Part shown: in pieces, positions 2,142 through 32,258 of the stretch
Numbering within the stretch: the stretch's first letter is position 1
Layout of the letters: every line of letters begins with the position of its first letter
DNA from: Candidatus Falkowbacteria bacterium
Lineage (GTDB): Bacteria > Patescibacteriota > Patescibacteriia > UBA11705 > JABHMO01
Length of the DNA: 32,476 bases
Direction of reading: 5' to 3'
NCBI GenBank assembly: GCA_016214755.1
Contig: JACRNX010000070.1
Coordinates: 1-32,476 of the forward strand
Notes under the pieces: generated by a model
What the model saw: the letters and a program-made list of their open reading frames with translations, nothing else
Told to the model about the DNA's origin: nothing
Database searches by the model: none
Program-made: the position numbers and the translations under genes

Positions 2142-3413
2142 ATGTGTCTGGCCACTCCGGCGAAAATCGTCGGTTTTAATCAAGATAAAATTTTAATCGA
2201 AAAGGACGGCGCGACGATGGAAGTCAGCGCTTTTTTATTGCCAAAAGCGAAAATCGGCGATTGGATTTTGTATGTTAATGATTTGGCGATAAAAAAAATT
2301 GACGCGGAAGAGGCGCGAGAGATTTTGCGGCTTGTTGAATCGCCGCGGAATAAAGTCAAGACAGAATTATTAAGTGGTAAGTTTAAGAAGATAATTGAAA
2401 AAGCGCATCAGAACGATTTGAATAAGGGTGAAATAATTTATTTATTAAACAGTGAAGGCATGGAAAAGGACGCATTGCTGGCGGAGGCGGACATCACGCG
2501 CCGCGCGTTCATCAAGGATTTTATTTGCATTCACGGCATTATCGAATTTTCCAATTATTGCGAGAATGATTGCGCGTATTGCGGATTGCGCTCGGCGAAT
2601 GGCGCGATCGAACGTTATCGGATGAGCATTGATGAAATTAAGGAAACCGCGAAGCAGGCGGCCGTCGAAAAAGGATACAAGCTGTTGGTTTTGCAGTCCG
2701 GCGAAGATAATTTTTATACCGACGATATGCTAGTTGAACTGATAAAACAGATTAAGTCCGTCTGTCGAGTGTTTATTTTCATGAGTTGCGGTGAACGCGG
2801 TTTTGAATGTTATAAAAAAATGAAAAACGCGGGCGCGTCGGGCGCGCTCTTGCGTTTTGAAACGTCAAGTCAATCATTATTCACAAAAATTCATCCGCAA
2901 GGAAAAAATTTAGAAAATCGAATTGAGCATTTGCGTTTTTTAAAAGAGTTGGGCTATTTTATCACCACTGGTTCGCTGATTGGTTTGCCTGGACAGACGA
3001 TTGAGGACTTGGCAGATGATATTTTATTGATTGCGCCGCGCGCGCACATGGTTTCAATGGGCCCGTTTATTCCTTGCGATAACACGCCGATGGAGAATTG
3101 CCCGGCTGGCGATCCGGAAATGAATTTAAAGATGATTGCCGTCTTGCGCTTGCTCATGCCGACCGCGAGAATTCCTGTTACTACCGCTCTGGAAACATTG
3201 CTCGGCGAAGACGGCCGGAAACGCGCGCTGGCGGCCGGCGCTAACGCGCTGATGATGAATTTAACGCCGAAAAAATACCGTTCGCTTTATAAAATTTACC
3301 CGGGCCGTTTTTTTGACAATGATTCGCTTTGGCAAAAGTATGGCTTGTTTAAATATGAAGAAAGTTATAAAATGCTTGAAGAGAGAATGGCGAAAGAAAT
3401 TAAGAGAAAATGA
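2142..3413 (+). CDS. hydE: [FeFe]-hydrogenase maturase HydE (radical SAM) with N-terminal HypC/HupF-like domain fusion
   Basis: Residues 1-~70 start MCLATPAKIV… and end …IGDWILYVNDLAIKKIDAEEAREIL, matching the HypC signature (MCL[AG]xP… VGDYVLVHVGFAI..ID.EEA). The rest aligns to HydE: IIEFSNYCENDCAYCGL (CX3CX2C), YRMS..EI, LQSGED, LLRFETS, ENRIEHL..LKELGY, GLPGQTIEDL, MGPFIP, YPGRF. Confidence 0.8.
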   Translation: MCLATPAKIVGFNQDKILIEKDGATMEVSAFLLPKAKIGDWILYVNDLAIKKIDAEEAREILRLVESPRNKVKTELLSGKFKKIIEKAHQNDLNKGEIIYLLNSEGMEKDALLAEADITRRAFIKDFICIHGIIEFSNYCENDCAYCGLRSANGAIERYRMSIDEIKETAKQAAVEKGYKLLVLQSGEDNFYTDDMLVELIKQIKSVCRVFIFMSCGERGFECYKKMKNAGASGALLRFETSSQSLFTKIHPQGKNLENRIEHLRFLKELGYFITTGSLIGLPGQTIEDLADDILLIAPRAHMVSMGPFIPCDNTPMENCPAGDPEMNLKMIAVLRLLMPTARIPVTTALETLLGEDGRKRALAAGANALMMNLTPKKYRSLYKIYPGRFFDNDSLWQKYGLFKYEESYKMLEERMAKEIKRK

Positions 3414-3464
3414 TTATAGATAGATGGAATAATTTTTTTATTCAAAGGCGGTTTGCTTCGCAGA

Positions 3465-3490
3465 CCTACTTTTTGTAATCAAAAAGTAGG
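3465..3490 (+). terminator. Hairpin downstream of hydE (putative terminator/attenuator)
   Basis: Perfect 10-bp stem cctacttttt/aaaaagtagg with 6-nt loop, followed by a weak T-run (caaaaagtttt). Confidence 0.4.
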
Positions 3491-3652
3491 CAAAAAGTTT
3501 TGGGGTGGCAAATTCGCTATCTCGTTGGGTTTAATCTCTTGCTGTCTGCCGCGACGCTCAGTTGCCCACCCCAAACCCCATGGTGGCGCTGAACTGTTGG
3601 TATCGCTGTTATCATCTGAAAATACAAACGACACTAACCATTCTCACAAAAT

Positions 3653-5035
3653 ATGCTGTCAGTTAACGATATTGTAACTGAAGACTTAATTCAAGATATT
3701 TTAAATAGAACAAAAAATGCCAGCGATAAAATCGCGCTGGCGATTTTAGAGAAAGCGAGAAAGAAAAAAGGATTAACGCTTGAGGAAGTCGGTTGTTTGA
3801 TTAACGCGCGAGATGACGGATTGATTGCGGAAATATTTGACGCCGCGCGCCAAGTAAAATCAGAAATTTACGGCGAACGTTTAGTCCTTTTCGCGCCGCT
3901 TTACGTTTCCAGCCATTGCGTCAACAATTGCGCGTACTGCGGTTTTCGACAGGATAATGGCGCGGGGCGGAAAAAATTAAGTTTGGAAGAAGTGGCGGAG
4001 CAAGTTAAAATTTTAGAATCAATGGGGCATAAGCGCCTGTTGCTGGAATTTGGCGAGGATCCGAAAGAGTCGCCGATTGACTATGTCGTTGAAGTTATTA
4101 AAACAATTTATGCCACCAAATGCGGTTTAGGCGAAATCCGACGAGTGAACGTTAATATCGCTGCCGATACGGCTGAAAATTATCGACAGTTAAAGGATGC
4201 GGGCATTGGCACTTATCAATTGTTTCAGGAAACTTATGACCGAAAAACTTATAAACAATTGCATCAGGGGCCCAAAGCGGATTACGAGCGGCAACTGTTC
4301 GCCATGGATAGGGCGTTTGAAGCAGGGATTGATGACGTGGGTTTGGGCGTATTATTCGGTCTTTATGATTGGCGGTTTGAAGTGCTGGCAATAATTAGCC
4401 ACGCGCGATACTTGGAAAAAAAGTTTGGCGTTGGCCCGCACACGATTTCTGTCCCGCGCTGGCAAAAAGCAGACGGCGCTCTCTGGCAATCAGCGCCGTC
4501 AGCTGTTTCTGACGATGATTTTTTGAAAATTATCGCTATCCTCCGTTTAGCTGTTCCTTACACGGGCATGATTATTTCCACCCGCGAACGGCCGGAAATT
4601 CGCGCCAAAGCGTTCAGCGTCGGTATTTCGCAGACCTCGGCCGCTTCGAGGACTTCGCCTGGCGGCTATGGCCAAAAATCAGAAACAGCGAATCAGTTTT
4701 GCGTTGCTGACGAGCGAACGCTTGACGAAGTAATCGCGAGTATCCTCGCTCAAGGTTTATTACCGAGTTTTTGCACTGCTTGTTATCGTTTAAAACGCAC
4801 GGGTGAAAATTTTATGGAGTTGGCAAAGCCGGGAGAAATCCAAAAATATTGTCGTCCAAACGCGATTTTGACTTTTCAAGAATATCTCGCGGACTATGCG
4901 TCGCCGGCAGTCAAGGAAAGCGGCGCGCGGGCGATTCAAAAACATTTGAACGCGATTGAAGATTCCGCCGTCCGCGAAGAAACGAAAAAACGGCTGGCGC
5001 GCGTCGCGGCCGGCGAACGCGATATTTATTTTTAG
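3653..5035 (+). CDS. hydG: [FeFe]-hydrogenase maturase HydG (radical SAM tyrosine lyase, ThiH-like)
   Basis: LVLFAPLYVSSHCVNNCAYCGFRQDN radical-SAM motif of the ThiH/HydG family. C-terminal FCTAC-X22-C (CX2CX22C) auxiliary-cluster motif, which is diagnostic for HydG versus ThiH. Confidence 0.85.
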   Translation: MLSVNDIVTEDLIQDILNRTKNASDKIALAILEKARKKKGLTLEEVGCLINARDDGLIAEIFDAARQVKSEIYGERLVLFAPLYVSSHCVNNCAYCGFRQDNGAGRKKLSLEEVAEQVKILESMGHKRLLLEFGEDPKESPIDYVVEVIKTIYATKCGLGEIRRVNVNIAADTAENYRQLKDAGIGTYQLFQETYDRKTYKQLHQGPKADYERQLFAMDRAFEAGIDDVGLGVLFGLYDWRFEVLAIISHARYLEKKFGVGPHTISVPRWQKADGALWQSAPSAVSDDDFLKIIAILRLAVPYTGMIISTRERPEIRAKAFSVGISQTSAASRTSPGGYGQKSETANQFCVADERTLDEVIASILAQGLLPSFCTACYRLKRTGENFMELAKPGEIQKYCRPNAILTFQEYLADYASPAVKESGARAIQKHLNAIEDSAVREETKKRLARVAAGERDIYF

Positions 5036-5128
5036 GACTTGAAATTTTTGATATTTATTGATACGCTGTATTTTGTAATTTGGGATTTGTTTAGAATTTA
5101 GAAATTCGGATTTAGAATTTGTTAGAGG

Positions 5129-5213
5129 GGGCAGGTGGTGGAACTGGTAGACACGTACGGTTCAGAGCCGTATGCCGCGAGGCATGAGGGTTCAAATCCC
5201 TCTCTGCCCACCA
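5129..5213 (+). tRNA. tRNA-Leu (anticodon CAG)
   Basis: Hand-folded cloverleaf: acceptor GGGCAGG/TCTGCCC, 3-bp D stem, anticodon stem TACGG/CCGTA with loop TTCAGAG, long variable arm (tgccgcgaggca), T-loop TTCAAAT, encoded CCA. Confidence 0.85.
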
Positions 5214-5311
5214 ATTTAGAAGTTAGAAATTGGAAATTGGAAGTTAGAGAAATAGATAGTTCTCATTTTTATTTTCCAACTTCTTATCTCCCATCTCTCA
5301 CCTCCAAATTT

Positions 5312-5387
5312 GGGCTCGTAGCTCAGTTGGTAGAGCGCGGCAATCGCAATGCCGAGGCCAGGGGTTCGATTCCCCTCGAGTCCACCA
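5312..5387 (+). tRNA. tRNA-Ala (anticodon CGC)
   Basis: Cloverleaf with the G3·U70 identity pair (GGGCTCG/CGAGTCC), anticodon loop ATCGCAA, T-loop TTCGATT, encoded CCA. Confidence 0.9.
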
Positions 5388-5405
5388 CCCCGACGGACGT
5401 CGGGG
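5388..5405 (+). terminator. GC-rich trailer hairpin after tRNA-Ala (CCCCGACG-ga-CGTCGGGG)
   Basis: Inverted repeat immediately 3' of the CCA end. The same core recurs after tRNA-Pro and at two other sites. Confidence 0.4.
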
Positions 5406-5544
5406 AAACTCAAAATTCCAAGCTCAAAATCCAAAGTAAATTTAAATTTTATAAATTTGATATTTAATTTGAATTTTAGGTTTTGTGCTTGAATCTATAA
5501 GGGTTTGTATCCTAGTCGAAATTTGTTAAAAGATTATAATAATT

Positions 5545-6522
5545 ATGGAATATACGGATAGGGTGTATGGAAATTTTGAAATCGAAGAACCGGTTATTTT
5601 GGAATTGATAAATTCTCCGACGCTTCAGCGATTAAAAGAAATAGATCAAGCGTGATACGGCGAGTCCTATTTCCCGGGCACCGCGCACTCCCGTTTTGAA
5701 CATTCAGTCGGCGTCTATTTGCTTCTTAAAATGTATCAGGCGCCGCTTGAAGAACAAATCGCCGGACTAATTCACGATGCCTCGCATTCAGCTTTTTCCC
5801 ATTGCATAGATTATGTTTTAGACGCCGGCTCGGGGAAAGAACACAATCATCAAGATAATGTTTTTGATGAATTTGTCAGAAAGTCGAAAATTCCCGAAAT
5901 ATTTAAAAAATATAATTTTGATTTAGAATATATTTTGGATGATAAAAATTTTCCGTTAAAAGAAAAGGATTTGCCGGATTTGTGCGCGGACAGAATTGAT
6001 TATTCATTAAGAACCGCCGTTGTTTTTGGAGAAATTGAAAACGGTCAGTATTTTATTGACAATCTTTCGGCAGAAAACGGCCAATGGATTTTCAAGGATT
6101 TTGAAAGCGCGGAAAAATACGCTGAATTATTTTTAAAACTTAACGCCAACTACTACGCTGGTTTGCCTTCCGCGGTTATGTTCCGGACAGTCGGCGACTA
6201 TCTCCGCTACGCGCTTTCAAAACAATATATTTCTGAAACTGATTTATATACCACTGACAAAGTCGTGCTGGAAAAAATAGAGCCGCATATTGAAACTGAT
6301 CCAGAATTAAGTTTGCTGTTTGACAGAATGAATAATAAAATCGGTTTTAAAAACGACCCGAATAATTTTGATGCCAAGGTTTTTTGTAAATCGCGAATGG
6401 TAAATCCTCTTTGCCGGCATGATGGAAAAATCAAAAGAGTTTCAGAGGTAAAGCCAAGTTGGGATGATATAATAAAGCGGGAATCTAAGCCGAAAGAGTA
6501 TTTTTTGAAGTTTGATAAGTAG
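5545..6522 (+). pseudogene. HD-domain metal-dependent phosphohydrolase interrupted by in-frame TGA (5653..5655)
   Basis: The conserved HD N-terminus (…LQRLKEIDQA*YGESYFPGTAHSRFEHSVGVYLL…) is split by an opal codon exactly where HD proteins have a conserved Gly (QLG…YPGA.H.RFEHSLGV). The listed ORF 5719..6522 (TTG start) lacks the H..RFEHS metal-binding half of the HD motif. Confidence 0.55.
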
Positions 6523-6655
6523 TCGGACCGGATGCGGAGGAGAACCGCCCATCATCTTCAAAGGCCAGGCGAGCTTTTGAAGGAATAGCAAAAAACAGAT
6601 AAAGATAATTTATTTGTTTTTTTATTTCAGCTAATTTTAGAGAGGTTTAGGATAG

Positions 6656-6684
6656 TTGACAGAATCATTTTTTTGTGCTATACT
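6656..6684 (+). promoter_or_regulatory. Sigma70-like promoter TTGACA-17-TATACT upstream of GC-rich islet
   Basis: Consensus -35 TTGACA (6656-6661), 17-nt spacer, -10 TATACT (6679-6684), about 45 nt upstream of the SD/ATG at 6731. Confidence 0.5.
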
Positions 6685-6730
6685 TTTATGTTCAGTGACA
6701 TGAACATCAACAACCTAAAGGAGGTGCGTA

Positions 6731-7099
6731 ATGAGGTACGACCAGTTCGTAGGGCTCAACGAAAGAGCCCAGGAGCTCATCAAGGGCGAGCAGGAGCTCG
6801 CCTACACGGAAGAGGTGGTGCGTATTTACCCTGATGGCGGGCAGGAAAGGATGCCGGATCGTCCGGTGTTCGAGTCCACGGTCAAGAAAGAGGAGAGCGG
6901 CGAATCATACACGGGTATGTTCACCGTCGAATATCCGCTCCACAAGTACACTTTCCCCAACGGCCAAATATACTACGAGCGCCTGCAGACAGCGCCGTGG
7001 TCGTCCGGCCCAGTCCATTTCCTCGCCCTCCAAAACGAAGACGGAAAGTGGGTTCCTGAATCCCTCTGGACAGACGAGGAAATCAGGCAAAACACTTAA
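6731..7099 (+). CDS. Hypothetical protein (GC-rich islet gene 1)
   Basis: 122-aa ORF preceded by a strong SD (aaaggaggtgcgtaATG). GC3-rich codon usage unlike its neighbours. Confidence 0.5.
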   Translation: MRYDQFVGLNERAQELIKGEQELAYTEEVVRIYPDGGQERMPDRPVFESTVKKEESGESYTGMFTVEYPLHKYTFPNGQIYYERLQTAPWSSGPVHFLALQNEDGKWVPESLWTDEEIRQNT

Positions 7100-7215
7100 C
7101 CGTTTCTCCCATCTTTCAAGCAAATCAATGGAACGCCCACGCGCGTTCCAATCTCCCCAAGCGATGTGATCCTTCGGTAAGTTCAGGATGATATCGTTTG
7201 GGGAGGTGAACAACC

Positions 7216-7449
7216 ATGATCAACAATAACGCGAAGATTCTGGTGTTCTCGGGTCTGGTGTCCAGGGAATGCGAAGCAGCGGCAGTGCCCAAAGGGCGTC
7301 TGCCTGAGGCGAAGGTGCTGGCGGAGCGTCGGTTGCGCGAGCTCGTCGGGAGGACGCAGGCGGCGCGGCAGGCGGGCAACTTCGAGAGGTACTACACGCT
7401 TCGTCAGCAGGTTCGCGAGATATCTCCCTCCATCGGCCGTCACCTCTAG
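7216..7449 (+). CDS. Hypothetical small protein (GC-rich islet gene 2)
   Basis: 77-aa ORF with SD ggggaggtgaacaaccATG, in the GC-rich segment. Confidence 0.4.
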   Translation: MINNNAKILVFSGLVSRECEAAAVPKGRLPEAKVLAERRLRELVGRTQAARQAGNFERYYTLRQQVREISPSIGRHL

Positions 7450-7613
7450 AAATCCCCTTGGTTCTATCCTCACGAAAAATCCAACCATTTCTACGCCGTG
7501 GACTTCTCTAAGTTCACGGTCCTTCCTTAAAAAATGATTATCATCGTTTTATAAGGAAGTTTCACGAGCAACGTGTTCGTGAAAAGGAAAACCAAACAGA
7601 TAGGGGAGGAAAA

Positions 7614-7874
7614 ATGTTCTGGAAAGCAAAGTTTTACATTGGGATCAGTTTCTTCACTATCGGCGCACTCGCTTTTCTCCTTTCCATCATGTCGCCCACC
7701 TGCAACGGGAATGTACACTTCATCATGTGGTGTACGTATATTCCCCCCGAGAAGTTCAGGTTCTTCGGCTCTTTGATGCTCATTGGCGGTGGGGTATTTC
7801 TTTATGCCTCATTGTCGGGCTTCCTGCGACACTATAAGAGTCTTCAAAGTCACCTGCCATCATCCCGCCAGTAG
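7614..7874 (+). CDS. Hypothetical small membrane protein (GC-rich islet gene 3)
   Basis: 86-aa ORF with SD taggggaggaaaaATG and two predicted hydrophobic helices. Confidence 0.45.
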   Translation: MFWKAKFYIGISFFTIGALAFLLSIMSPTCNGNVHFIMWCTYIPPEKFRFFGSLMLIGGGVFLYASLSGFLRHYKSLQSHLPSSRQ

Positions 7875-8062
7875 CGCTCCGACGTACCCGTCGAAGCGTT
7901 TTCCATTTTAAATATCAGGTTTACAATTTTTTTTTGATTTGTTAAAATCAAATCAATATTATATGGATTTACCCCACCGTGGCGGGGTATACGGATTTTT
8001 TGAGAAAGGACTAAACGTTTTCTTGATTTATTATTTTTTTGATTTCTTAATTTTTTATTTAT

Positions 8063-8139
8063 GGACGACTAGCTCAGCTGGTTAGAGCGCTACACTCACA
8101 CTGTAGAGGTCACTGGTTCGATCCCAGTGTCGTCCACCA
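8063..8139 (+). tRNA. tRNA-Val (anticodon CAC)
   Basis: Cloverleaf: acceptor GGACGAC/GTCGTCC, anticodon loop CTCACAC, T-loop TTCGATC, encoded CCA. Confidence 0.9.
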
Positions 8140-8223
8140 ATTTGGAAGTTGGAGATTAGAGATTGGAGGTTAGAAAGATACTCACTTCTAACTTCTCATT
8201 TCCAATTTCCCGTCTCCAAATTA

Positions 8224-8300
8224 CGGGGTATGGCGCAGTTGGCTAGCGCGCATGCATGGGGTGCATGAGGTCGCCAGTTCAAATCTGGCTACCCCGACCA
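8224..8300 (+). tRNA. tRNA-Pro (anticodon GGG)
   Basis: Cloverleaf: C1-G72 acceptor CGGGGTA/TACCCCG, anticodon loop ATGGGGT with G37, T-loop TTCAAAT, encoded CCA. Confidence 0.9.
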
Positions 8301-8378
8301 TCCTTCGAGGTTCGTCCCGCCAGAAGCGGGACTCGCACCTCAGGATGACAAAAAAATACAGAAGTACTAGAACAAAAA

Positions 8379-16838: not shown

Positions 16839-18332
16839 TTATCTTCCACCGCAACCGCATTTTCCGTTTACGCCGCAGCTTCCACCGGATGTTTCCGCGC
16901 CGGAGGCAGTAAATGAATTGCCATTGCTTTCTGAAAAATCGTCTTCAATCGCTGATTTATCGCCGCTGACAACTTCGATAATTCCGGATATCATTCCCAT
17001 CCAGCAGCTAAATTTGTATTTGCCTGGTTTTTTAGGAGTAAACTCCTTGACGCTGATTTGGCCGGGAGTCAAGGAGATTTCTCCTTCAAATAAATTCTTT
17101 GAGATAATGGCATTGGTGCAGCCGCTGGTACCTTTGTCGGTAACAATCCAACGCACCGGCACATTGGTTCTGACTTTAAAATAGTTTGGTGAATATCCAG
17201 AAGACGAGGCATTCATTTTTATAGTTTGTTTTCCGTTTACAATCAGCGGCAATCCGTTAGAATTGGCGTTGTCTGTCGTCTCGGCCGTTGCTTTTATATT
17301 AAAATTGCTGAAGCTGGGCAGTCCCAAAACATTCATTTGGAAATTGATGTTATAAAGCGCGAAAAACAAAACTACCATTCCCGCCACTTTCAAAAATTTG
17401 TCAGCCAGATGCGGCTTCTGGGAAAATTTGACGCCGGAGAGCCCAATGGTTAAAAGCATCGGCAGAGTGCCTAAAGCGAAAAAGAGCATAATTAATCCGC
17501 CTTGAATCGCGCTGCCGGATATTAAAGCGAGCCCTTGGGCAGTGATCGTAAAACCGCAAGGAAGGAAAAAAGTAAACGCGCCCAGCAAGGACGGCATATA
17601 GCGGCCCTTGAAATTAGATTCGTCGGCGATATGTCTGGTAATAAATTTTGGCATGGTGAATTGGAATCTTTTAAACGCTTTAACGCCGAGCATTTGAAGA
17701 GCAAGAAAAATCATCAACGCGGAGACAGCGATGATAAAAATAGGGCCTAATTTCAAAGAAAGATTGAATATGCCGCCAATCGCGCCGAGGATTGTCCCGA
17801 AAATTCCGTATGAAATGATTCTGGCGGCATTAAATATCAAGTGTGGTTGAATTTTTTTTGAAGCTGACGCCGCACTGGGATATAAGTCATTCCATTGTTT
17901 TGACATTGAAAGGATAATGCCGCCAACTAAAGCCGCGCAACTAGAAATGCCGGCGATGAGTCCGAGGACGAAAAACATCGGAAGAGATGATTTTTCATTG
18001 ACGTTTACTAGTCCCGACACGCCCAATTTGTTTAATCCGATAAAGCCGGCGATAATTAATAATCCAATAAATATGGCGCCAAGGAAACGCAAAGGATTAA
18101 AGATGTCTGGTGTTTCAGGGGGGTTGTCGAAAAAAATGTATCCTTCATTTCTAAAGAGTTTGTTTAATTTCTCAAGGCTGGGTTTTTCGCCGAGATATTC
18201 AATCAGCGCGCAGCCCCTTGCTGTTGAGGCCTCGACTGATTTGATGTCGCCCAGTTCGAGCAATTTTTTTTCAATGATGATTTCGCAGGAAGCGCAATGC
18301 ATTCCTTTAATATAATAGATGTGTTCTTTCAT
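16839..18332 (-). CDS. HMA-domain membrane protein with permease core (DsbD_2/TauE-like), cupredoxin-like domain and Cys-rich C-terminus
   Basis: N-terminal [13 protein letters not shown] fold. About 8 TM helices with SSCAAL and FFLPCGFT motifs. Soluble domain ending GKYKFSCWMGMISGIIEV (cupredoxin-like C..M ligands). Tail SCGVNGKCGCGG. Lies between csoR and copA. Confidence 0.6.
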   Translation of the reverse strand: MKEHIYYIKGMHCASCEIIIEKKLLELGDIKSVEASTARGCALIEYLGEKPSLEKLNKLFRNEGYIFFDNPPETPDIFNPLRFLGAIFIGLLIIAGFIGLNKLGVSGLVNVNEKSSLPMFFVLGLIAGISSCAALVGGIILSMSKQWNDLYPSAASASKKIQPHLIFNAARIISYGIFGTILGAIGGIFNLSLKLGPIFIIAVSALMIFLALQMLGVKAFKRFQFTMPKFITRHIADESNFKGRYMPSLLGAFTFFLPCGFTITAQGLALISGSAIQGGLIMLFFALGTLPMLLTIGLSGVKFSQKPHLADKFLKVAGMVVLFFALYNINFQMNVLGLPSFSNFNIKATAETTDNANSNGLPLIVNGKQTIKMNASSSGYSPNYFKVRTNVPVRWIVTDKGTSGCTNAIISKNLFEGEISLTPGQISVKEFTPKKPGKYKFSCWMGMISGIIEVVSGDKSAIEDDFSESNGNSFTASGAETSGGSCGVNGKCGCGGR

Positions 18333-18358
18333 ATTTCGTGTTTTGTTAATTTTTTCAG

Positions 18359-18631
18359 TTACTTGTTAGATAGTTTCGTGACCCTTAGAATTTCTTGGGT
18401 CATCTCCTGTTTTCTTTTTTCATTTTTTGTCGCCATCGCTTTCTTGAAACAAGTATTGAGATGGTTTTCCATCAGCATTTGATGAGCGGATTTCAAGAGC
18501 CCGAGCGCGGCCAAATTTTGCTGCATTATTTCAATGCAGTATTGATTGGCTTCGACCATTTCGATAATTTTAGAAATTAGGCTTTGGGCTTTCTTAAAAT
18601 TGACAAGAGCTTTTTCTTTTTGGGTAGTCAT
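18359..18631 (-). CDS. csoR: CsoR/RcnR-family metal-sensing transcriptional repressor
   Basis: Family hallmark …MVEANQYCIEIMQQNLAALGLLKSAHQMLMENHLNTCF (Cys-His-Cys ligand pattern). Confidence 0.85.
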   Translation of the reverse strand: MTTQKEKALVNFKKAQSLISKIIEMVEANQYCIEIMQQNLAALGLLKSAHQMLMENHLNTCFKKAMATKNEKRKQEMTQEILRVTKLSNK

Positions 18632-18659
18632 ATTTTTAAGTTATTAATAAGCGTGCCCG

Positions 18660-18690
18660 ACCTATACCATAGGTACGGGTATATTGTAGC
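18660..18690 (-). promoter_or_regulatory. Putative CsoR operator/promoter region upstream of csoR
   Basis: Overlapping palindromes ATACCatagGTACgGGTAT and TACCataGGTA at 18664-18682. The minus strand has TATTAAT between this site and the start codon. Confidence 0.4.
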
Positions 18691-18844
18691 AAACGGAAAA
18701 TTCTTGTCAATAACAAGTTGGCCGTTAATTGAGGATAAGTCAGTCGGCAATCGCTGTCGGAATATGACAGAATAAGACAGAATAGGTGGCGATGTTTAAA
18801 ATAAAAAAGAAACGAGCTTAAGTTCGCCCTAAAAGCGCGTTGAT

Positions 18845-25180: not shown

Positions 25181-25325
25181 AAGGACGTAATCCGTATTTT
25201 CACATTGGATTTATTCTACCACGCGTGATATAATATTTCAAGTGTCCGTTGCCTCAACCGCATATTTGCGAAAACATTTTGTAATGACGAGTTAGGCGCC
25301 GCAGCCTCTATGGTAAAATACAACT

Positions 25326-25610
25326 ATGAAACTTAATGATGAACAGCAAAAAAAACTTATAGAAAAACTCAATGAAGTTTGGCAACAGCCAAAGATTTGT
25401 TCAGTTTGTGGACATAATCAGTGGGATGTTTCTGATAGAATCTTTGAGTTACGCGAATTTCATGGAGGGGGCATGGTAATTGGCGGGCAGTCGAGTATTA
25501 CTCCAATTGTCCATGCAACCTGCAAAAATTGCAGTCACACATTATTTTTCAATGCCCTTAAAATAGGCTTAATTGATAAAGATGTCAATTCCACCAGCAA
25601 AACAGAGTGA
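25326..25610 (+). CDS. Hypothetical zinc-ribbon protein (CxxC…CxxC)
   Basis: 94-aa ORF with CSVCGH…CKNCSH. AT-rich island. Confidence 0.5.
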   Translation: MKLNDEQQKKLIEKLNEVWQQPKICSVCGHNQWDVSDRIFELREFHGGGMVIGGQSSITPIVHATCKNCSHTLFFNALKIGLIDKDVNSTSKTE

Positions 25611-25995
25611 GAGTGAAATCGAGATATCTCAATCATGCCAATTACCAGTCCCAGAAAAATGGAAGGGCTTTCCTGTGTATGGAAAAGATTGGGATAGAAT
25701 AAAGAAAATGGTTGATAGAATTATTTCCCCCACAAGTTTTTGGCAAATCGTATGGCCAGCTTCTTTTGGTATATCCATTTCTGCTCTACTGAGTGCACTG
25801 ACTATACTCGAGAAAGGTCATCCAAATAAAACCTCTTGCTACTGGCTTTTCTTGCTATTCATGATCATTGGTATTCTAACCTTAATAATAGATAAAACTC
25901 GTAAAGCAGCATCTATATCTACTAAGGAGCAGTTGAAGGAAGAAATGGAAAAAATGGAAGAACCCTACAAAACAGATAGGGGCTATGGCGGCTAA
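25582..25995 (+). CDS. Hypothetical small membrane protein (2 TM)
   Basis: Overlaps the preceding gene in another frame. Two hydrophobic helices. Start uncertain (TTG 25573 or ATG 25582). Confidence 0.45.
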   Translation: MSIPPAKQSESEIEISQSCQLPVPEKWKGFPVYGKDWDRIKKMVDRIISPTSFWQIVWPASFGISISALLSALTILEKGHPNKTSCYWLFLLFMIIGILTLIIDKTRKAASISTKEQLKEEMEKMEEPYKTDRGYGG

Positions 25996-26145
25996 TAGGG
26001 GATAGCTGGTTCGCTTGCTAAATAATTTTTCATTTAATAATTGTTTTGCGTGTAGGCCTTTTTTGAAAAAAGGAATAGAAATTTTGTTTTTCCTTATTTA
26101 TTCAGTGTATTATTCAACAGACTTATTAAGCATACTTAAAACATT

Positions 26146-27009
26146 ATGAGCAGCTACGAAGATTTTAAAAATCGGTTCAAATTACTAGCTGGCAAAAATC
26201 GTCATTTGGTAGTTAATACCTTATCAAACATTTTTACAATGAGATTAATTGGGAATAAAACGCACGGCGATTTAGCTGAAATTGGAATTGTCGAGTTTAT
26301 CAATCAATTCATGTATGATTTTAAAAGTATTCATGTTGGCAAAGACCTTTTTCGGGCGAAAGAACACGAAGAAGATATAATGATAATGAGCGAGATAAGC
26401 AAAACGAAATTTCCCGTCAGCTTAAAAGCTTATGGGGATGGTCTTTTGCAATTATCCACTGACAGCAAACAGAAGATGTTCCCATTTCTTGAAAAGCAAG
26501 GTAAAGAAATCCGGGATAATAGAAAGATAGAAGCAATTTTTAACGCTTCTGAATTTTTCGATTTTGGGGCAATAAATGTAATGCCTCTAATTTATGATGA
26601 AAAAAATCAACGCTGCAACATCATGATTTTTGACCATAAAAAGGCAAGAGACAACATAAATAAAATTATATTTATTGATAAGGGACAAAGATTTGATTTT
26701 ATGACAGGCAGAGTGGTGCCAGGAAAGGGGAGATCCCATCCGATTTATATGTTTGTAGATCCTAAAAATGAATATATATGTGAAGTAAGATATGGCGGTG
26801 CTTCGGCAAATGCTTTACAGCGCGGCCTTTGGACACACACAAAAAACGCTATTGATTATTTTGACTCTCTCACAAATGGCTGGATAGATTATTCACACAA
26901 TCATACACTTGTAAAACTTTTTGGCCTTGCTTTAAATAGTTCCGAAGAAGGTCATAAAGTTGCTAATGAAATCTTACAGAAAGACATTGATAGGCTTAAA
27001 AAATTATGA
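26146..27009 (+). CDS. Putative Type II restriction endonuclease
   Basis: 287-aa ORF whose stop overlaps the methyltransferase start (ATGA), the classic R-M gene arrangement. Distant resemblance (…YICEVRYGGASANA…) to DpnII/MboI-family catalytic region. Unconfirmed. Confidence 0.5.
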   Translation: MSSYEDFKNRFKLLAGKNRHLVVNTLSNIFTMRLIGNKTHGDLAEIGIVEFINQFMYDFKSIHVGKDLFRAKEHEEDIMIMSEISKTKFPVSLKAYGDGLLQLSTDSKQKMFPFLEKQGKEIRDNRKIEAIFNASEFFDFGAINVMPLIYDEKNQRCNIMIFDHKKARDNINKIIFIDKGQRFDFMTGRVVPGKGRSHPIYMFVDPKNEYICEVRYGGASANALQRGLWTHTKNAIDYFDSLTNGWIDYSHNHTLVKLFGLALNSSEEGHKVANEILQKDIDRLKKL

Positions 27010-28133
27010 ACGATCAACAATTAGACATTTTCGGCAGAAAAACATTGGTTGTTCCGACAACAGAAGGCATCAAATACGCAGGGTCAAAATTAAAAATACT
27101 ACCTTACATCGTTCAAATTCTAGGCGAACTTGACGGAGTAAAAAAGGTACTTGATGGGTTTAGCGGAACAACCAGAGTTTCTCAAGCTTTTGCTCAGCTT
27201 GGATATAAAACGACAGCCAACGATATTTCAGCTTGGTCTGAAGTTTTTGGTACGTGCTATCTAAAGTCAAAAAAAGAAGATAAATTTTATCAGCAAATTT
27301 TAGATCGCTTGAATGGCTTAAAAGGATATGATGGCTGGTACACAAAACACTACGGGGCGGAAATAGACGAGGGCAAAAAACCCTTTCAAACAAAGAATAC
27401 TAGAAAACTCGATGCAATAAGGGATGAGATAGAGAAATTGGATTTATCGTGGGAAGATAAATGTGTTATTTTAACAAGCTTAATCTATGCCCTTGATTCT
27501 GTTGATAGTACCCTTGGGCACTATGTTTCTTACTTGGCAAAATGGTCTCCAAGATCGCATAATGGTTTATTTTTGAAATTGCCAAAAAGATTTAAAACCA
27601 AAGGAAAACACGAAGTAATTCGTGGAGATATTTTTGATACGATACAAAAAAAAGAATTTGATTTTGTATATTTCGACCCTCCTTATGGCTCAAACAATGA
27701 AAAAATGCCTCCGAGCCGTGTCAGGTATGCTTCTTATTATCACATATGGACTACTATTATCAATCACGACAAGCCTGAATTATTTGGAAAGGTTAATCGA
27801 AGAGTGGACACAAGAGATATTGTTGCTAGTTCTGTTTTTGAGGAATTTAGAAAAAATGAAAAAGGAAGTTTTATCGCTATGGAGGCGTTAAGAAAACTAA
27901 TCCAAGAAACTAAATCTCATTATATTCTTCTTTCGTATAGTTCTGGAGGTAGGGCGACGAAGCAAGAATTAAATGACATAATACACGAATCGGGAAAATT
28001 ACTAAAAGCAGTTGAAATTAACTATAAAATAAATGTTATGGGTGGTATGCGTTGGACAAACAAATGGATTAACAGCGATAATCAACACCATGAGTATTTA
28101 TTCTTAATGGAAAAGACAAGGAATGTGTTTTGA
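27006..28133 (+). CDS. DNA N6-adenine methyltransferase, D12 (Dam-like) class
   Basis: Motif I-like KYAGSKLKILPYI and catalytic FDFVYFDPPYGS (DPPY). Confidence 0.85.
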   Translation: MNDQQLDIFGRKTLVVPTTEGIKYAGSKLKILPYIVQILGELDGVKKVLDGFSGTTRVSQAFAQLGYKTTANDISAWSEVFGTCYLKSKKEDKFYQQILDRLNGLKGYDGWYTKHYGAEIDEGKKPFQTKNTRKLDAIRDEIEKLDLSWEDKCVILTSLIYALDSVDSTLGHYVSYLAKWSPRSHNGLFLKLPKRFKTKGKHEVIRGDIFDTIQKKEFDFVYFDPPYGSNNEKMPPSRVRYASYYHIWTTIINHDKPELFGKVNRRVDTRDIVASSVFEEFRKNEKGSFIAMEALRKLIQETKSHYILLSYSSGGRATKQELNDIIHESGKLLKAVEINYKINVMGGMRWTNKWINSDNQHHEYLFLMEKTRNVF

Positions 28134-28283
28134 CTAAGGAGCAGGAGGGTCGGAGGTGAACGCCTCGAAGCCAAAACGAAAATAAAATTTGTTAATTGCT
28201 GAGAAGTATCCGACTGTTGTCGAGAAAAAAAGTATACGCCATATAATCCGAAATATCTCGTTTAAGAATTTTTCACGTTAATT

Positions 28284-28407
28284 AATTTTTTAAATGATTT
28301 TAAATTATGATGCTGATGTCGTTAATAAGCGAACCGTTATTTTTCATTGTTTGGCTATTCGCCATTGTCGTGGTTTTGACTATCCACGAATTTTCGCACG
28401 CGCTCGC
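28284..28407 (+). repeat. Direct repeat copy A (about 89% identical to 29522..29646), 5' end of M50 protease gene
   Basis: 124-nt segment including the upstream AT-rich leader and the first about 33 codons (MMLMSLISEPLFF.VWLFAIVVVLTIHEFSHALA). 44 nt are identical at the distal end. Confidence 0.85.
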
Positions 28408-28438
28408 AAATAACGGCCGAAATAGAAAAAGAAGATAA
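28307..28438 (+). pseudogene. Truncated remnant of M50/S2P metalloprotease N-terminus (44 aa)
   Basis: Encodes MMLMSLISEPLFFIVWLFAIVVVLTIHEFSHALANNGRNRKRR*. Identical or near-identical to the first TM/HExxH segment of the intact gene at 29546, then diverges. Confidence 0.6.
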
Positions 28439-28536
28439 AACTCTTGCGCGAAGTGTTGCGGATAGGACTTTACCCTTCGCCAAAAGCTATCATAATCGTG
28501 AAACGCGTCATTTTTTAGCAGGTTTTCACGTTTTAT

Positions 28537-28565
28537 TTGACAAAAAGGTGAAAAGGGTATAAAAT
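28537..28565 (+). promoter_or_regulatory. Consensus sigma70 promoter TTGACA-17-TAAAAT driving the Fic gene
   Basis: -35 TTGACA (28537-28542), 17-nt spacer, -10 TAAAAT (28560-28565), 37 nt upstream of the ATG at 28602. Confidence 0.55.
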
Positions 28566-28601
28566 AGAGTTAAAGCGCTTAATTCTTTTAATTTTATAGC
28601 T

Positions 28602-29507
28602 ATGCCAAAAACATTACATATTATTAACATAATTTCTCACCTGCGAGAACGTTATTATGCCGCGGCTGTTGGCAAACAGGCGCTTTTGAAATTGTTGAGC
28701 GAAGCGGAAGTGGCCGAACAGGTATATAACTCCAATGCCATTGAAAACAGCACGCTCACTCTTGAAGAAACAGAGAAAATACTTTTGCAAATAGATTTGG
28801 ATAGATATATTACTGAACGAGAAATTTTTGAAGCGAAAAATCTGGCGCGGGTTGTGTCATATATTGACAAAAGAGCCAAGGAGCAAGAATTAACTCTCGA
28901 AGTAATTTTATCACTTCATAAAATGTTAATTTCAAATATCCGCGACGATATTGCCGGTAGATTCAGAAAGGAAAATGAATTTGTGCGTGTCGGCAGCCAC
29001 ATCGCCCCTAACCCCAAAGAGATAGTGAATCGTCTGGAAAAAATATTGTCCGAATATAATGCTTCGAGTCATGAAAATATAATCAGAAGAATAGCAAAAT
29101 TGCATCTTGCCTTTGAATACACTCATCCATTTTGTGACGGCAATGGCCGCATTGGCCGCGTTATCAATAATTACCTGTTAATACGAGAAGGGTTTGTCCC
29201 TATAAATATAAAATTTATTGACAGAAAAAAATATTATGAAGCGTTTATAGAATTTGATGCCAAGGGCGCGACCGCTATTATGGAAGAAATAGTCGGCAAG
29301 GCGCTGACCAATAGTTATTATAAACGACTTGCTTATCTTGAGGGCGCGCAGATTCTAACCCTTGCTGAATATGCAAAAATGAATAAAATATCCCACTCTA
29401 ATTTAATTAATAAAGCCAGCCGTCAAACAATTGAGGCCTTCTTAGAAAAAGGGGTGTGGAAAATAGGCGTCGCGCAAAAAGACAGTATGAACAAATCAGA
29501 ACCCTAA
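28602..29507 (+). CDS. Fic-domain protein (class II, AMPylase-type) with C-terminal winged-helix-like region
   Basis: FIC motif HPFCDGNGRIGR (HxFx[DE]GNGRxxR). N-terminal inhibitory-helix motif SNAIEN ([ST]xxxE[GN]) upstream of the core. Confidence 0.85.
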   Translation: MPKTLHIINIISHLRERYYAAAVGKQALLKLLSEAEVAEQVYNSNAIENSTLTLEETEKILLQIDLDRYITEREIFEAKNLARVVSYIDKRAKEQELTLEVILSLHKMLISNIRDDIAGRFRKENEFVRVGSHIAPNPKEIVNRLEKILSEYNASSHENIIRRIAKLHLAFEYTHPFCDGNGRIGRVINNYLLIREGFVPINIKFIDRKKYYEAFIEFDAKGATAIMEEIVGKALTNSYYKRLAYLEGAQILTLAEYAKMNKISHSNLINKASRQTIEAFLEKGVWKIGVAQKDSMNKSEP

Positions 29508-30821: not shown

Positions 30822-32258
30822 ATGCCTAAATCAGAAAGGGCGTCGGGAGGAGGAATCTTTGAAAGTCGGACCGAACGCGCCAAGCGCGAGCCGATTTTTT
30901 ATTTTACCACCCGCGAAACCGATCGAAGAACCAGCGAGGCCTATGAAAAGAAATGGGTCTCGGTGCTCGGTATTGAGTTAGAGGTTTATGACGCGGAGCG
31001 CGAAGGAGGAGAAGGAACGAATTTTCGCCAAGAAGAATTTGACGATTTTCTGCATGATGACAAAGCAAAAGCAATTTTAAAACATTTTGCCATCGGCGTC
31101 AAACTAAACCACGCCCCTTTAATTGAAGGCGAGACCGACATTGGCAAAACTAAAGCCCTTGAATATTTGGCTTATCTTACTAATCACAAGTTAGTGCGCG
31201 TTTCTGTTCGCGGCACGACCGACCCATCAGAATTTTTTGGCAAGCATGTGCCCGAGTCGGCCACCGCTCAGCAGAAGATTTTGGACGCCATCAAAAGAAA
31301 GGCGGGGCTGACAAAAGAAGTCCGCGAACGAGTGGAGAAAGCGCAAAAAGCCGGCCAGTCATTTTCCCTTGAAGATTATAAGGCGCTCGCTGATTGGCAA
31401 ACAAAATCATTGTCAGGGTTGCAAAAAGAAGCGCTTTCATTTTTTCAAAAGGCGGTAAAAGAGGGCAGAGGATTGACCCGGGAAGAATGGGAACAGTTCG
31501 CGGCCATAGAGGGCATTGATCTTGAAAGTAAGATGTTTCATTGGCAAGACGGCGAAGTGGTTAAGGCCATGACGCGAAACAATGGCCATGGCTATTGGAT
31601 TTATATTGATGAAATCGGCGCGGCCGAGCCGCAAATTTTGGTCGCTTTAAATCGTATCCTTGAACAGCAAAGGCGCATTGAACTATCGGAAGACGGCGGT
31701 CGTTCTGTGGAAGCGGGCAAACATTTTCGTCTTTTTGCTTCAACTAATCCTCCTGAATACGCCGGCCGCCTGCCTTTGGCGCCTGATTTTTTGCGCCGCT
31801 GGGCTTACAAAAAAGAAAGCCCGCTCTCCGAGAAAGACATCAAAGAACGTTTTGCCCATATCGCGCGCGTGATTCCTCTTGAGCAAGAAATCAGAGAATT
31901 GTTTTGCGATGTATTAACCGTTTTTCATCTTTCTCTTCGCAGTTCAATTAAGGATATTTTGAAAAAGCAAAAACAAAAGTTTAATTATGAATTTTCCGAT
32001 TTGATTAGAGTGCGCGATTATTTTGTCGGTCTCGGCAATCAAGATCCGCTCGCCGCTCTGCGCGAAGGGATGGAATACGCTGTTTTTGCAAAAATCGGCG
32101 ATGAAGAACAGAGAAAAGCGCAGAGAGAGGCCTTTGAAACTTTATTGAAAAGTAAAACAATTCCGGAAAAAGTGAAAAAGATAATTGAAAAAAGAAGAAT
32201 ATCTGGCGCGGTCGGCCAAGCAGTGAGCAAGATGGGGCAGGATATTGCTGGTTTTTAA
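30822..32258 (+). CDS. AAA+ ATPase, AAA_5/MoxR-like, with about 90-aa insertion between Walker A and B
   Basis: Walker A GETDIGKT, VRVSVRGTTDPSEFFGKHVP (MoxR-like box), Walker B WIYIDEIGAA, sensor/Arg-finger region FASTNPPEYAGRLPLAPDFLRRW. Confidence 0.7.
   Translation: MPKSERASGGGIFESRTERAKREPIFYFTTRETDRRTSEAYEKKWVSVLGIELEVYDAEREGGEGTNFRQEEFDDFLHDDKAKAILKHFAIGVKLNHAPLIEGETDIGKTKALEYLAYLTNHKLVRVSVRGTTDPSEFFGKHVPESATAQQKILDAIKRKAGLTKEVRERVEKAQKAGQSFSLEDYKALADWQTKSLSGLQKEALSFFQKAVKEGRGLTREEWEQFAAIEGIDLESKMFHWQDGEVVKAMTRNNGHGYWIYIDEIGAAEPQILVALNRILEQQRRIELSEDGGRSVEAGKHFRLFASTNPPEYAGRLPLAPDFLRRWAYKKESPLSEKDIKERFAHIARVIPLEQEIRELFCDVLTVFHLSLRSSIKDILKKQKQKFNYEFSDLIRVRDYFVGLGNQDPLAALREGMEYAVFAKIGDEEQRKAQREAFETLLKSKTIPEKVKKIIEKRRISGAVGQAVSKMGQDIAGF

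Follow-up and report, generated by a model that had tools for sequence, protein, structure and literature searches.

The stretch analysed here, referred to below as the window, is the entire 32,476-bp contig of a 'Candidatus Falkowbacteria bacterium' metagenome-assembled genome (MAG) from the candidate phyla radiation (CPR, Patescibacteria), and our subject is a GC-rich patch within it that holds small open reading frames (ORFs) between tRNA genes. We consider it probable, with part of the evidence pulling the other way, that positions 6656-7909 form an autonomous mini-operon around a moron-like mobile cassette carrying the first of these frames, ORF1, and that this cassette was acquired before the window lineage separated from that of a syntenic relative, the 9-kb contig L010, and has been inherited vertically since. 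No new category of system is required to describe it. The unit matters as a minimal transcription unit whose path can be followed from phage-like GC-rich arrays to many AT-rich chromosomes of CPR bacteria, which have tiny genomes and little-known mobile DNA.

Between 6725 and 7465 the GC content reaches 56.8%, against 43.1% for the contig. This interval tops all 3174 sliding 740-nt segments: just two segments reach 56.8%, both overlapping 6725-7465, and the highest value outside the patch is 52.4%; in 150-nt segments the local peak is 69%. The changes in composition are abrupt, at ~6700 and ~7470, and from 7475 on the GC content is 39-49%. An earlier reading of this DNA (the original prediction) had placed a GC jump at 6700-7900, which stands for 6725-7470 and fails beyond ~7470. 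Most of the excess falls on third codon positions, whose GC content (GC3) is 0.72 in ORF1 and 0.78 in ORF2, versus 0.445 ± 0.081 (maximum 0.58) in 28 other window ORFs. Every codon class is affected: the C-ending share of NNY codons is 0.84-0.90 in ORF1 and ORF2 versus 0.43 elsewhere, and the G-ending share of NNR codons 0.60-0.79 versus 0.22. ORF3 has a GC3 of 64% at 48% GC overall. The three small ORFs of 122, 77 and 86 aa are present as described (6731-7099, 7216-7449 and 7614-7874, all on the + strand), each with a GGAGG-type Shine-Dalgarno sequence 6-8 nt upstream. Antisense and shifted-frame ORFs also occur in the patch; their lengths are no greater than in synonymous-codon shuffles (16 homologues), which marks them, as had been suspected, as spurious by-products of GC3 richness, and on the same comparison overlapping or antisense genes were rejected as a cause of the high GC3.

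The GC-rich patch exists in the genome and did not arise by misassembly. A 3,014-bp contig in the Logan assembly of run SRR12113407 is identical to window positions 5086-8099 and spans both composition boundaries, and contigs from other samples (L010-L015, L027) show the same arrangement; with an identical independent assembly and the same order in a related genome, we conclude that there is no misjoin. The contrary idea, that the Falkowbacteria contig had wrongly taken in a piece of DNA from a GC-richer organism, drew on the abrupt steps at ~6700 and ~7470. These steps, however, fall on ORF boundaries, and an AT-rich, host-typical promoter and spacers are contiguous with the GC-rich ORFs, leaving a chimera with next to no probability. 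The suspicion of misassembly raised by the original prediction is thereby lifted from the contig, which is useful for its annotation.

The age of the unit was judged against one relative lineage, L010, which reads tRNA-Pro(cgg), tRNA-Ala(cgc), HD-domain gene, ORF1, ORF2, tRNA-Val(cac), tRNA-Pro(ggg) and arginyl-tRNA synthetase (ArgRS). Common to both are the promoter, Shine-Dalgarno sequences, hairpins, terminator, tRNA-Val/Pro promoter and GC excess (in L010, 54.5% in ORF1 and 60.7% in ORF2 versus 39.7% in the HD gene, with GC3 of 0.64 and 0.81 for ORF1 and ORF2, respectively). The tRNA-Ala(cgc) genes are 97% identical, and amino acid identity is 68% for HD, 53-55% for ORF1 and 64% for ORF2. 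The proportion of synonymous differences (pS, Nei-Gojobori) between window and L010 is 0.74 for HD, 0.67 for ArgRS, 0.66 for ORF1 and 0.58 for ORF2; as the values for ORF1 and ORF2 equal those of the housekeeping flanks, the pair would predate the split of the two lineages. Judged from this divergence, ORF1 and ORF2 appear to have diverged together with their housekeeping neighbours, with an acquisition older than the window/L010 split. By their ratios of non-synonymous to synonymous substitution (dN/dS; HD 0.07, ArgRS 0.10, ORF1 0.22, ORF2 0.27, with 0.16-0.33 for ORF1 across comparisons), ORF1 and ORF2 behave as protein-coding genes subject to a relaxed form of purifying selection. The earlier proposal of laterally acquired cargo is thus upheld for the ORF1 gene family, which occurs in phage-like arrays and unrelated CPR contexts, and is not upheld for a recent arrival, the unit being shared with L010; conversely, the prospect that the islet might be ancestral in all relatives is partly borne out, since the single relative lineage examined carries it. 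A composition anomaly beside tRNA genes, then, need not mean recent transfer.

ORF1 (122 aa, HZB94_04980, 6731..7099, + strand, GC3 72%) appears to be the mobile core of the unit. Its product is acidic (pI 4.6), hydrophilic, all-beta and cytoplasmic, and its AlphaFold2 model (predicted local distance difference test score, pLDDT, 88.9) consists of six long beta-strands flanked at either end by short helices. When 1.84 billion cluster representatives were searched with a profile, 812 proteins came up at E≤0.001, of which 346 reached E≤1e-10; most are ~120 aa long. ORF1 and 75 sampled members had no match in Pfam, NCBIfam, PHROGs, PADLOC or PDB sequences, and across the same collections none of ORF1, ORF2 and ORF3 gave a significant profile or solved-fold match. 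This large family (hundreds of clusters), having neither annotation nor fold relative, is a candidate for structural and phage-interaction studies; by analogy with phage accessory genes, our guess is that a role in host-phage conflict (exclusion, defence or anti-defence) is the most likely class of function. Close relatives come from Parcubacteria, Saccharimonadia and other Patescibacteria MAGs. Members also occur on archaea-binned contigs (L018, a Nanoarchaeota MAG, and P0120/L042, an 'archaeon' MAG), and the L018 protein is 98% identical to the copy on an unbinned metagenome contig, L029; mis-binning or transfer between CPR and DPANN could account for these.

All five distant family members with fetched contexts sit among small unannotated ORFs that run in the same direction and form long arrays. 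One array (L035) carries a phage-type primase-helicase and another (L036) a NinI-like phosphatase, and the gene has a GC content close to that of its surroundings (59 vs 59.5% and 57 vs 53%, respectively); these arrays look like phage or other mobile DNA. In CPR chromosomes the ORF1 gene is a loner with no recurring neighbour, and it usually stands far above its flanks in GC content (for example, gene/flank 0.59/0.35 in L029, 0.61/0.40 in L020, 0.57/0.38 in L023 and 0.56/0.37 in L044). An all-against-all BLAST of neighbours yielded no conserved partner gene beyond ORF2 in L010, and a 74-aa gene behind the L035 homologue, considered as a relative of ORF2, proved unrelated. The copies in L009, L026, L020, L023 and L029 differ from one another by a pS of 0.32-0.50 (dS ~0.4-0.8) with dN/dS ~0.3, have no flanking genes in common and reside in hosts of 35-50% GC. 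With such low dS, unrelated flanks and differing host GC, vertical descent cannot explain them. Nucleotide similarity among these core copies sets in at the -35 box, takes in a hairpin in the 5' untranslated region (UTR), AAGGAGG and the ORF, and ends just past the U-run of a terminator; since the limits of similarity coincide with promoter and terminator, the mobile unit would be one transcription unit of ~0.6 kb. Four further copies (L028, L002, L032, L022) are synonymously saturated relative to all others and have GC3 close to that of their hosts, which is what amelioration of older arrivals would predict. In 9 of 14 independent family contexts there is a tRNA gene no more than 1 kb away, compared with a chance expectation of ~9% (from our own rough CPR density of ~45 tRNA genes per Mb), so that the suggested role of tRNA neighbourhoods as landing zones gains statistical support across the family. 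At one locus, L044 2681-3903, behind the ORF1 cassette stand a NUDIX hydrolase gene and one for a metallo-beta-lactamase-fold protein matching the Anti-Pycsar Apyc1 family, a single case of a possible anti-defence neighbourhood.

The window unit carries a full set of predicted expression signals on the + strand. The sigma-70-type promoter TTGACA-17-TATACT with an extended -10 (TGTGCTATACT, 6656..6684) had been singled out from the start; it matches 11/12 consensus positions, includes the TG, and is the best match in 4.5 kb. The L010 promoter reads TTGACA...ATTTTTTTGTGCTATAAT, L002, L008 and L009 share a TTGAC-17-CTATnAT motif, and in a sequence-level test -35 and -10 elements were found at the matching position in L010, L002, L008, L009, L029 and L044. 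Near the predicted transcript start, fold prediction gives a small 5' UTR stem-loop (6690..6705) that may conceivably stabilise the mRNA; core cassettes have a stronger hairpin at the same position, with compensatory changes. ORF1 is preceded by the Shine-Dalgarno sequence AAAGGAGGTG (6717..6726), in which AAGGAGG is invariant across five lineages. Behind ORF1, a hairpin without a U-run is predicted at 7129..7150 (GGAACGC...GCGUUCC); its L010 counterpart reads GGAAUAUUC...GAAUAUUCC, a compensatory change relative to the window. Core copies have a terminator, AGCGCGUAG...CUACGCGCUUUUUU, right behind the stop codon, and it is this position that the hairpin occupies, without a U-run in both window and L010; GCAA[AC]ATCAA precedes the hairpin in the window and the terminator in core copies. 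As the U-run is missing, transcription should run on into ORF2.

The spacer between ORF1 and ORF2 has a minimum free energy (MFE) of -48.2 kcal/mol (z -6.1). It is predicted to fold into a long hairpin (7151..7207) in which CUCCCCAAGC pairs with the ORF2 Shine-Dalgarno sequence (GGGGAGG, 7200-7206), and the form common to window and L010 pairs CUUCCCCAAG with the same site (L010 z -3.7). With its Shine-Dalgarno sequence sequestered, ORF2 would be translated to a restricted degree or in a manner coupled to ribosomes finishing ORF1, so that the hairpin is a predicted gate on ORF2 translation. After ORF2, three tandem stem-loops (7495-7520, 7522-7559 and 7560-7584; MFE -60 kcal/mol, z -7.2) all recur in L010, their stems altered yet still paired (z -5.7). 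The putative intrinsic terminator of the operon, AGCGCU-CGACG...CGUCG-AGCGUUUUCCAUUUU (7873..7909, z -5.0), stands behind ORF2 and ORF3, not directly behind ORF1; the stop codon of ORF3 overlaps its stem, and a homologous terminator lies at 6590-6625 in L010. A promoter-like TTTACA-17-TAAAAT for the downstream tRNA pair (7920..7948, + strand), conserved in L010, marks the right boundary of the operon. In an Rfam search of the window only tRNAs passed the threshold, and the GC-rich ORFs had no match even at E<5.

From these elements we propose the following history and mode of expression. More widely, the ORF1 family would be at home in GC-richer gene arrays of phage-like or mobile character, an origin that would explain the GC3-rich codons of ORF1. 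The gene would be the payload of a ~0.6-kb unit made up of a promoter, a 5' UTR hairpin, a strong ribosome-binding site (RBS), a ~120-aa gene and an intrinsic terminator, and this unit would have spread horizontally among CPR bacteria, landing usually in intergenic DNA beside tRNA genes. In the Falkowbacteria lineage the terminator after ORF1 probably lost its U-run, and the GC-rich ORF2 came to be read from the same transcript, with ORF3 a presumed later insertion of ~288 nt in the 3' region. The near-consensus extended -10 promoter would drive strong constitutive transcription, and ORF1 would be translated freely, with the conserved hairpin limiting translation of ORF2 or coupling it to that of ORF1. 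The three tandem 3' stem-loops might protect the transcript, and the conserved terminator would end it just before the tRNA-Val promoter.

Several other explanations were weighed. A recent lateral acquisition at a tRNA hotspot, not yet ameliorated, would fit the GC3 of 72-78% as against 44.5 ± 8% in other genes, the tRNA flanks and the demonstrable mobility of the ORF1 family; it is also helped by the window ORF1 being synonymously nearer to core copies than to L010, with a core-like 5' two-thirds, such that a partial allele replacement could be comparatively recent. Yet the whole unit, ORF2 and non-coding elements included, occupies the same slot in L010, its pS of 0.58-0.66 is on a par with the housekeeping flanks (0.67-0.74), and neither an integrase nor att repeats were found, making a recent arrival quite improbable. 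Under another view, also unlikely, ORF1 and ORF2 are an ancient native pair that was never transferred, and G/C-ending codons have been selected for expression, for mRNA stability or structure, or to suit the neighbouring C34/G34 tRNAs. The persistence of high GC3 in both window and L010 despite near-saturated synonymous divergence, the near-consensus expression signals, adjacent tRNAs that mostly read G- or C-ending codons, and the folding of ORF1 coding sequences (detailed below) all speak for it. It is contradicted by family members with a GC3 of 25-46% (L028, L002, L032), whose existence means that high GC3 is not needed for function, and by the lack of a conserved consensus RNA structure in the family. 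In L009 the genes for ribosomal protein S6, elongation factor P (EF-P) and single-stranded DNA-binding protein (SSB) have a GC3 of 0.55-0.58, versus 0.79 for the ORF1 homologue, and expression-linked codon bias was rejected on this ground. Moreover, copies at dS ~0.4-0.8 in hosts 15 GC points apart and with unrelated flanks require transfer, and GC-matched members lie in mobile-looking arrays.

A toxin-antitoxin-like or addiction module, formed either by the ORF1 and ORF2 proteins or by ORF3 as a small membrane toxin repressed by mRNA folding (type I-like), is suggested by two small genes predicted to be co-transcribed, one product acidic and the other basic, by the predicted sequestration of the Shine-Dalgarno sequences of both ORF2 and ORF3, by the two hydrophobic segments of ORF3, and by a MazE-like gene adjoining the homologue in L002. 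We nevertheless hold it to be highly unlikely: no toxin or antitoxin family was matched in Pfam, NCBIfam or PADLOC, ORF1 stands alone in nearly all genomes and ORF2 occurs in two lineages only, ORF3 is not conserved and its 86 aa would make it an unusually long type I toxin, and no promoter for an antisense RNA stands out. That the patch is instead a structured non-coding RNA with incidental ORFs has hardly any probability. In AT-rich genomes a GC-rich island often turns out to be an RNA gene, and the intergenic parts have strong folding z-scores, but the GC enrichment sits at third codon positions, dN/dS is well below 1, ORF length is conserved over hundreds of representatives, and no Rfam family was matched even at E<5. 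The RNAalifold consensus over the ORF1 coding sequence is negligible (-5.3 kcal/mol), so that a conserved RNA element inside ORF1 was also rejected, though single coding sequences fold better than permuted ones, and ORF2 has no excess folding relative to permutations.

The mini-operon with an anciently acquired ORF1 cassette, which we prefer, has a number of observations set against it. A GC3 of 0.64-0.81 in ORF1 and ORF2 has survived near-saturating synonymous divergence in both lineages, where a rough amelioration estimate of our own (not a fitted model) gives an expected GC3 of roughly 0.55-0.6. As the values exceed what simple amelioration predicts, the composition of both genes may owe something to selection at synonymous sites or to allele replacement; an anomaly that outlasts near-saturation of synonymous sites raises the question of what maintains GC3. 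The ORF1 coding sequence folds more stably than its synonymous permutations in 8/8 homologues (z -1.5 to -3.4), which, over few sites, hints at selection at the RNA level. The pS of the window ORF1 is 0.53-0.56 to non-syntenic core copies versus 0.66 to L010. Over the first ~40 codons its third positions have a similarity of 0.63 to core alleles (L009, L026, L020, L023) versus 0.46 to L010; over the last ~30 codons the values are 0.68 to L010 versus 0.41 to core alleles. Such a mosaic suggests, from few sites, a partial allele replacement by recombination, which would complicate a purely vertical history. On the side of mobility, the 'phage-like' label derives from the appearance of the arrays and a few PHROG hits, and the ORF1 family had no match in IMG/VR pattern scans (viral contigs) or in an INPHARED tblastn. 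No integrase or recombinase domain was found among the window ORFs scanned with Pfam, and no att or terminal repeats at the boundaries in the window, L002, L008, L009, L010 or L023; the sole long repeat to emerge from the att search was the inter-tRNA spacer. Finally, promoter, terminators and hairpin gate are predictions from sequence only.

Among known systems, the unit most resembles the morons of phages, accessory genes transcribed as units of their own, HK97 gene 15 among them (PMC3594210). It matches their definition as promoter-gene-terminator units with a GC content unlike that of their neighbours, horizontally spread and related to phage genes (PMC3594210): ORF1 is a small single gene with its own promoter and, in core copies, its own intrinsic terminator directly behind it, has spread as a unit, has relatives in phage-like arrays, and deviates in GC (56-62% for ORF1 and ORF2 versus 43% for the contig, a contrast repeated in most CPR loci). 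It differs from morons in that the window unit lies in a bacterial chromosome with no surrounding prophage, recurs beside CPR tRNA genes, and has probably lost the terminator U-run and gained a second gene in this lineage. The window neighbourhood (tRNAs, HD gene and nearby unannotated ORFs) gave no convincing phage-protein match, and because the copy is not inside a prophage we call it moron-like and not a moron. With tRNA-linked genomic islands and integrative elements it shares DNA of foreign composition by tRNA genes and a recurrent tRNA association across genomes; unlike them, it lacks an integrase as well as direct att repeats derived from the 3' end of a tRNA, and is only ~0.6-1.2 kb long. 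Integron gene cassettes are likewise small single-gene mobile units of foreign composition that often encode proteins of unknown fold, but they are promoterless and carry attC, whereas the ORF1 unit has a predicted promoter and terminator of its own and neither an attC-like repeat nor a nearby integrase. Sequestration of Shine-Dalgarno sequences and translational coupling are familiar from MS2 coat/replicase, ribosomal protein operons and hok mRNA folding. The predicted ORF2 arrangement is similar to these in that its RBS would pair with an upstream anti-Shine-Dalgarno sequence in a stable hairpin conserved between lineages; it differs in that no trigger (ligand, temperature, upstream ribosome or small RNA) was identified for ORF2 and the evidence is predictive.

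A bolder version, which we think unlikely, sees the ORF1 cassette as a 'free-living moron': a ~0.6-kb element moving by itself between CPR (perhaps DPANN) genomes with a preference for intergenic sites near tRNA genes, without its own recombinase, and encoding a previously unseen all-beta fold, in which G/C-ending codons and C34/G34 'auxiliary' tRNAs might be functionally linked. If this were true, synthesis of the product might report on or depend on the neighbouring C34/G34 tRNAs; alternatively, the element might have a role in phage conflict.

ORF2 (77 aa, HZB94_04985, 7216..7449, + strand, GC3 78%, dN/dS 0.27) encodes a basic protein (pI 10.8) with three predicted helices (pLDDT 74.6). It was found only in the window lineage and L010, with 64% identity to P0014. 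ORF3 (86 aa, 7603..7874, + strand) comprises a Shine-Dalgarno sequence, GGGGAGG, at 7603-7609 and the ORF at 7614-7874, whose product has two hydrophobic segments; its GC content is 48% and its GC3 64%. The predicted fold pairs its Shine-Dalgarno sequence with 7453-7463. Together with its RBS, ORF3 occupies ~288 nt present only in the window, exactly between the third stem-loop and the terminator, and absent from L010. No homologue was found, the protein is not in the protein collection, and the gene is not called by public annotations or in the Logan contig; no att-type repeats or miniature transposon ends were found around the cassette or ORF3. We treat ORF3 as a candidate gene in a lineage-specific insert.

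The unit was described as sitting between two tRNA pairs, and tRNA-Leu(cag) (5129-5213) with tRNA-Ala(cgc) (5312-5387) on one side (5129..5387, + strand) and tRNA-Val(cac) (8063-8139) with tRNA-Pro(ggg) (8224-8300) on the other (8063..8300, + strand; same position in L010) do flank it, as annotated by ARAGORN and Rfam; an HD gene at 5545-6522, however, separates tRNA-Ala from the promoter. This HD-domain gene (5545..6522, + strand) is the left syntenic neighbour and lies outside the GC-rich unit, with a GC content of 38% and GC3 of 38%. It contains an in-frame TGA at 5653-5655 (codon 37), where L010 has GGA (Gly). An alternative genetic code (code 25) was considered and rejected: TGA terminates 11/26 window genes and is thus a normal stop, which together with the GGA of L010 makes this a point nonsense change, not recoding. 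On these grounds the TGA is most simply taken as a nonsense mutation (giving a pseudogene or a downstream restart) or a read error.

The inter-tRNA spacers at 5208-5291 and 8134-8217 are 75% identical to each other. They consist of GGAAGTT/GGAGATT-like repeats followed by their complement and would fold into a long hairpin separating the two tRNAs of a pair; L010 has spacers built alike at 4415-4523 and 6721-6829, and the structure may be a tRNA-precursor processing element. Across the window plus L002, L008, L009, L010, L020, L022, L023 and L044, the tRNAs beside ORF1-family cassettes are mostly C34/G34 isoacceptors (Leu-CAG/CAA, Ala-CGC/GGC, Val-CAC, Pro-CGG/GGG, Glu-CUC and Lys-CUU), and the cassette is rich in the G- and C-ending codons that C34/G34 tRNAs read; this link could be coincidence or reflect a clustering of auxiliary tRNAs.

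The remaining window genes are ordinary chromosomal ones, including radical-SAM maturases, ArgRS, an ABC/MacB exporter and copper resistance genes. Some ~10.5 kb (8300-18800) lie between tRNA-Pro(ggg) and ArgRS, while in L010 ArgRS directly follows tRNA-Pro(ggg), so that this is a larger variable tRNA-adjacent segment relative to L010. It holds unannotated proteins of 248 and 283 aa, a CDP-alcohol phosphatidyltransferase, CopA, a DsbD-cupredoxin protein, CsoR and, on the minus strand at 10514-12181, a 555-aa major-vault-protein (MVP)-like gene with MVP shoulder and Vault repeat domains. A low-GC block (31-38%; ~25200-29500 and 30822-32258) contains small unannotated ORFs, a Dam-type N6-adenine methyltransferase (27006-28133) and a Fic protein (28602-29507) matching the PADLOC candidate-defence models PDC-S04 and SoFic, then an AAA_5 ATPase, and looks like a defence or mobile island. 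At 2142-5035, two radical-SAM/BATS proteins resemble the [FeFe]-hydrogenase maturases HydE and HydG, the first with an N-terminal HypC/HupF fusion. At the contig start, a protein with helix-turn-helix and SocA/Panacea antitoxin domains (128-904) is followed by an overlapping 126-aa ORF, and the two may be a toxin-antitoxin pair.

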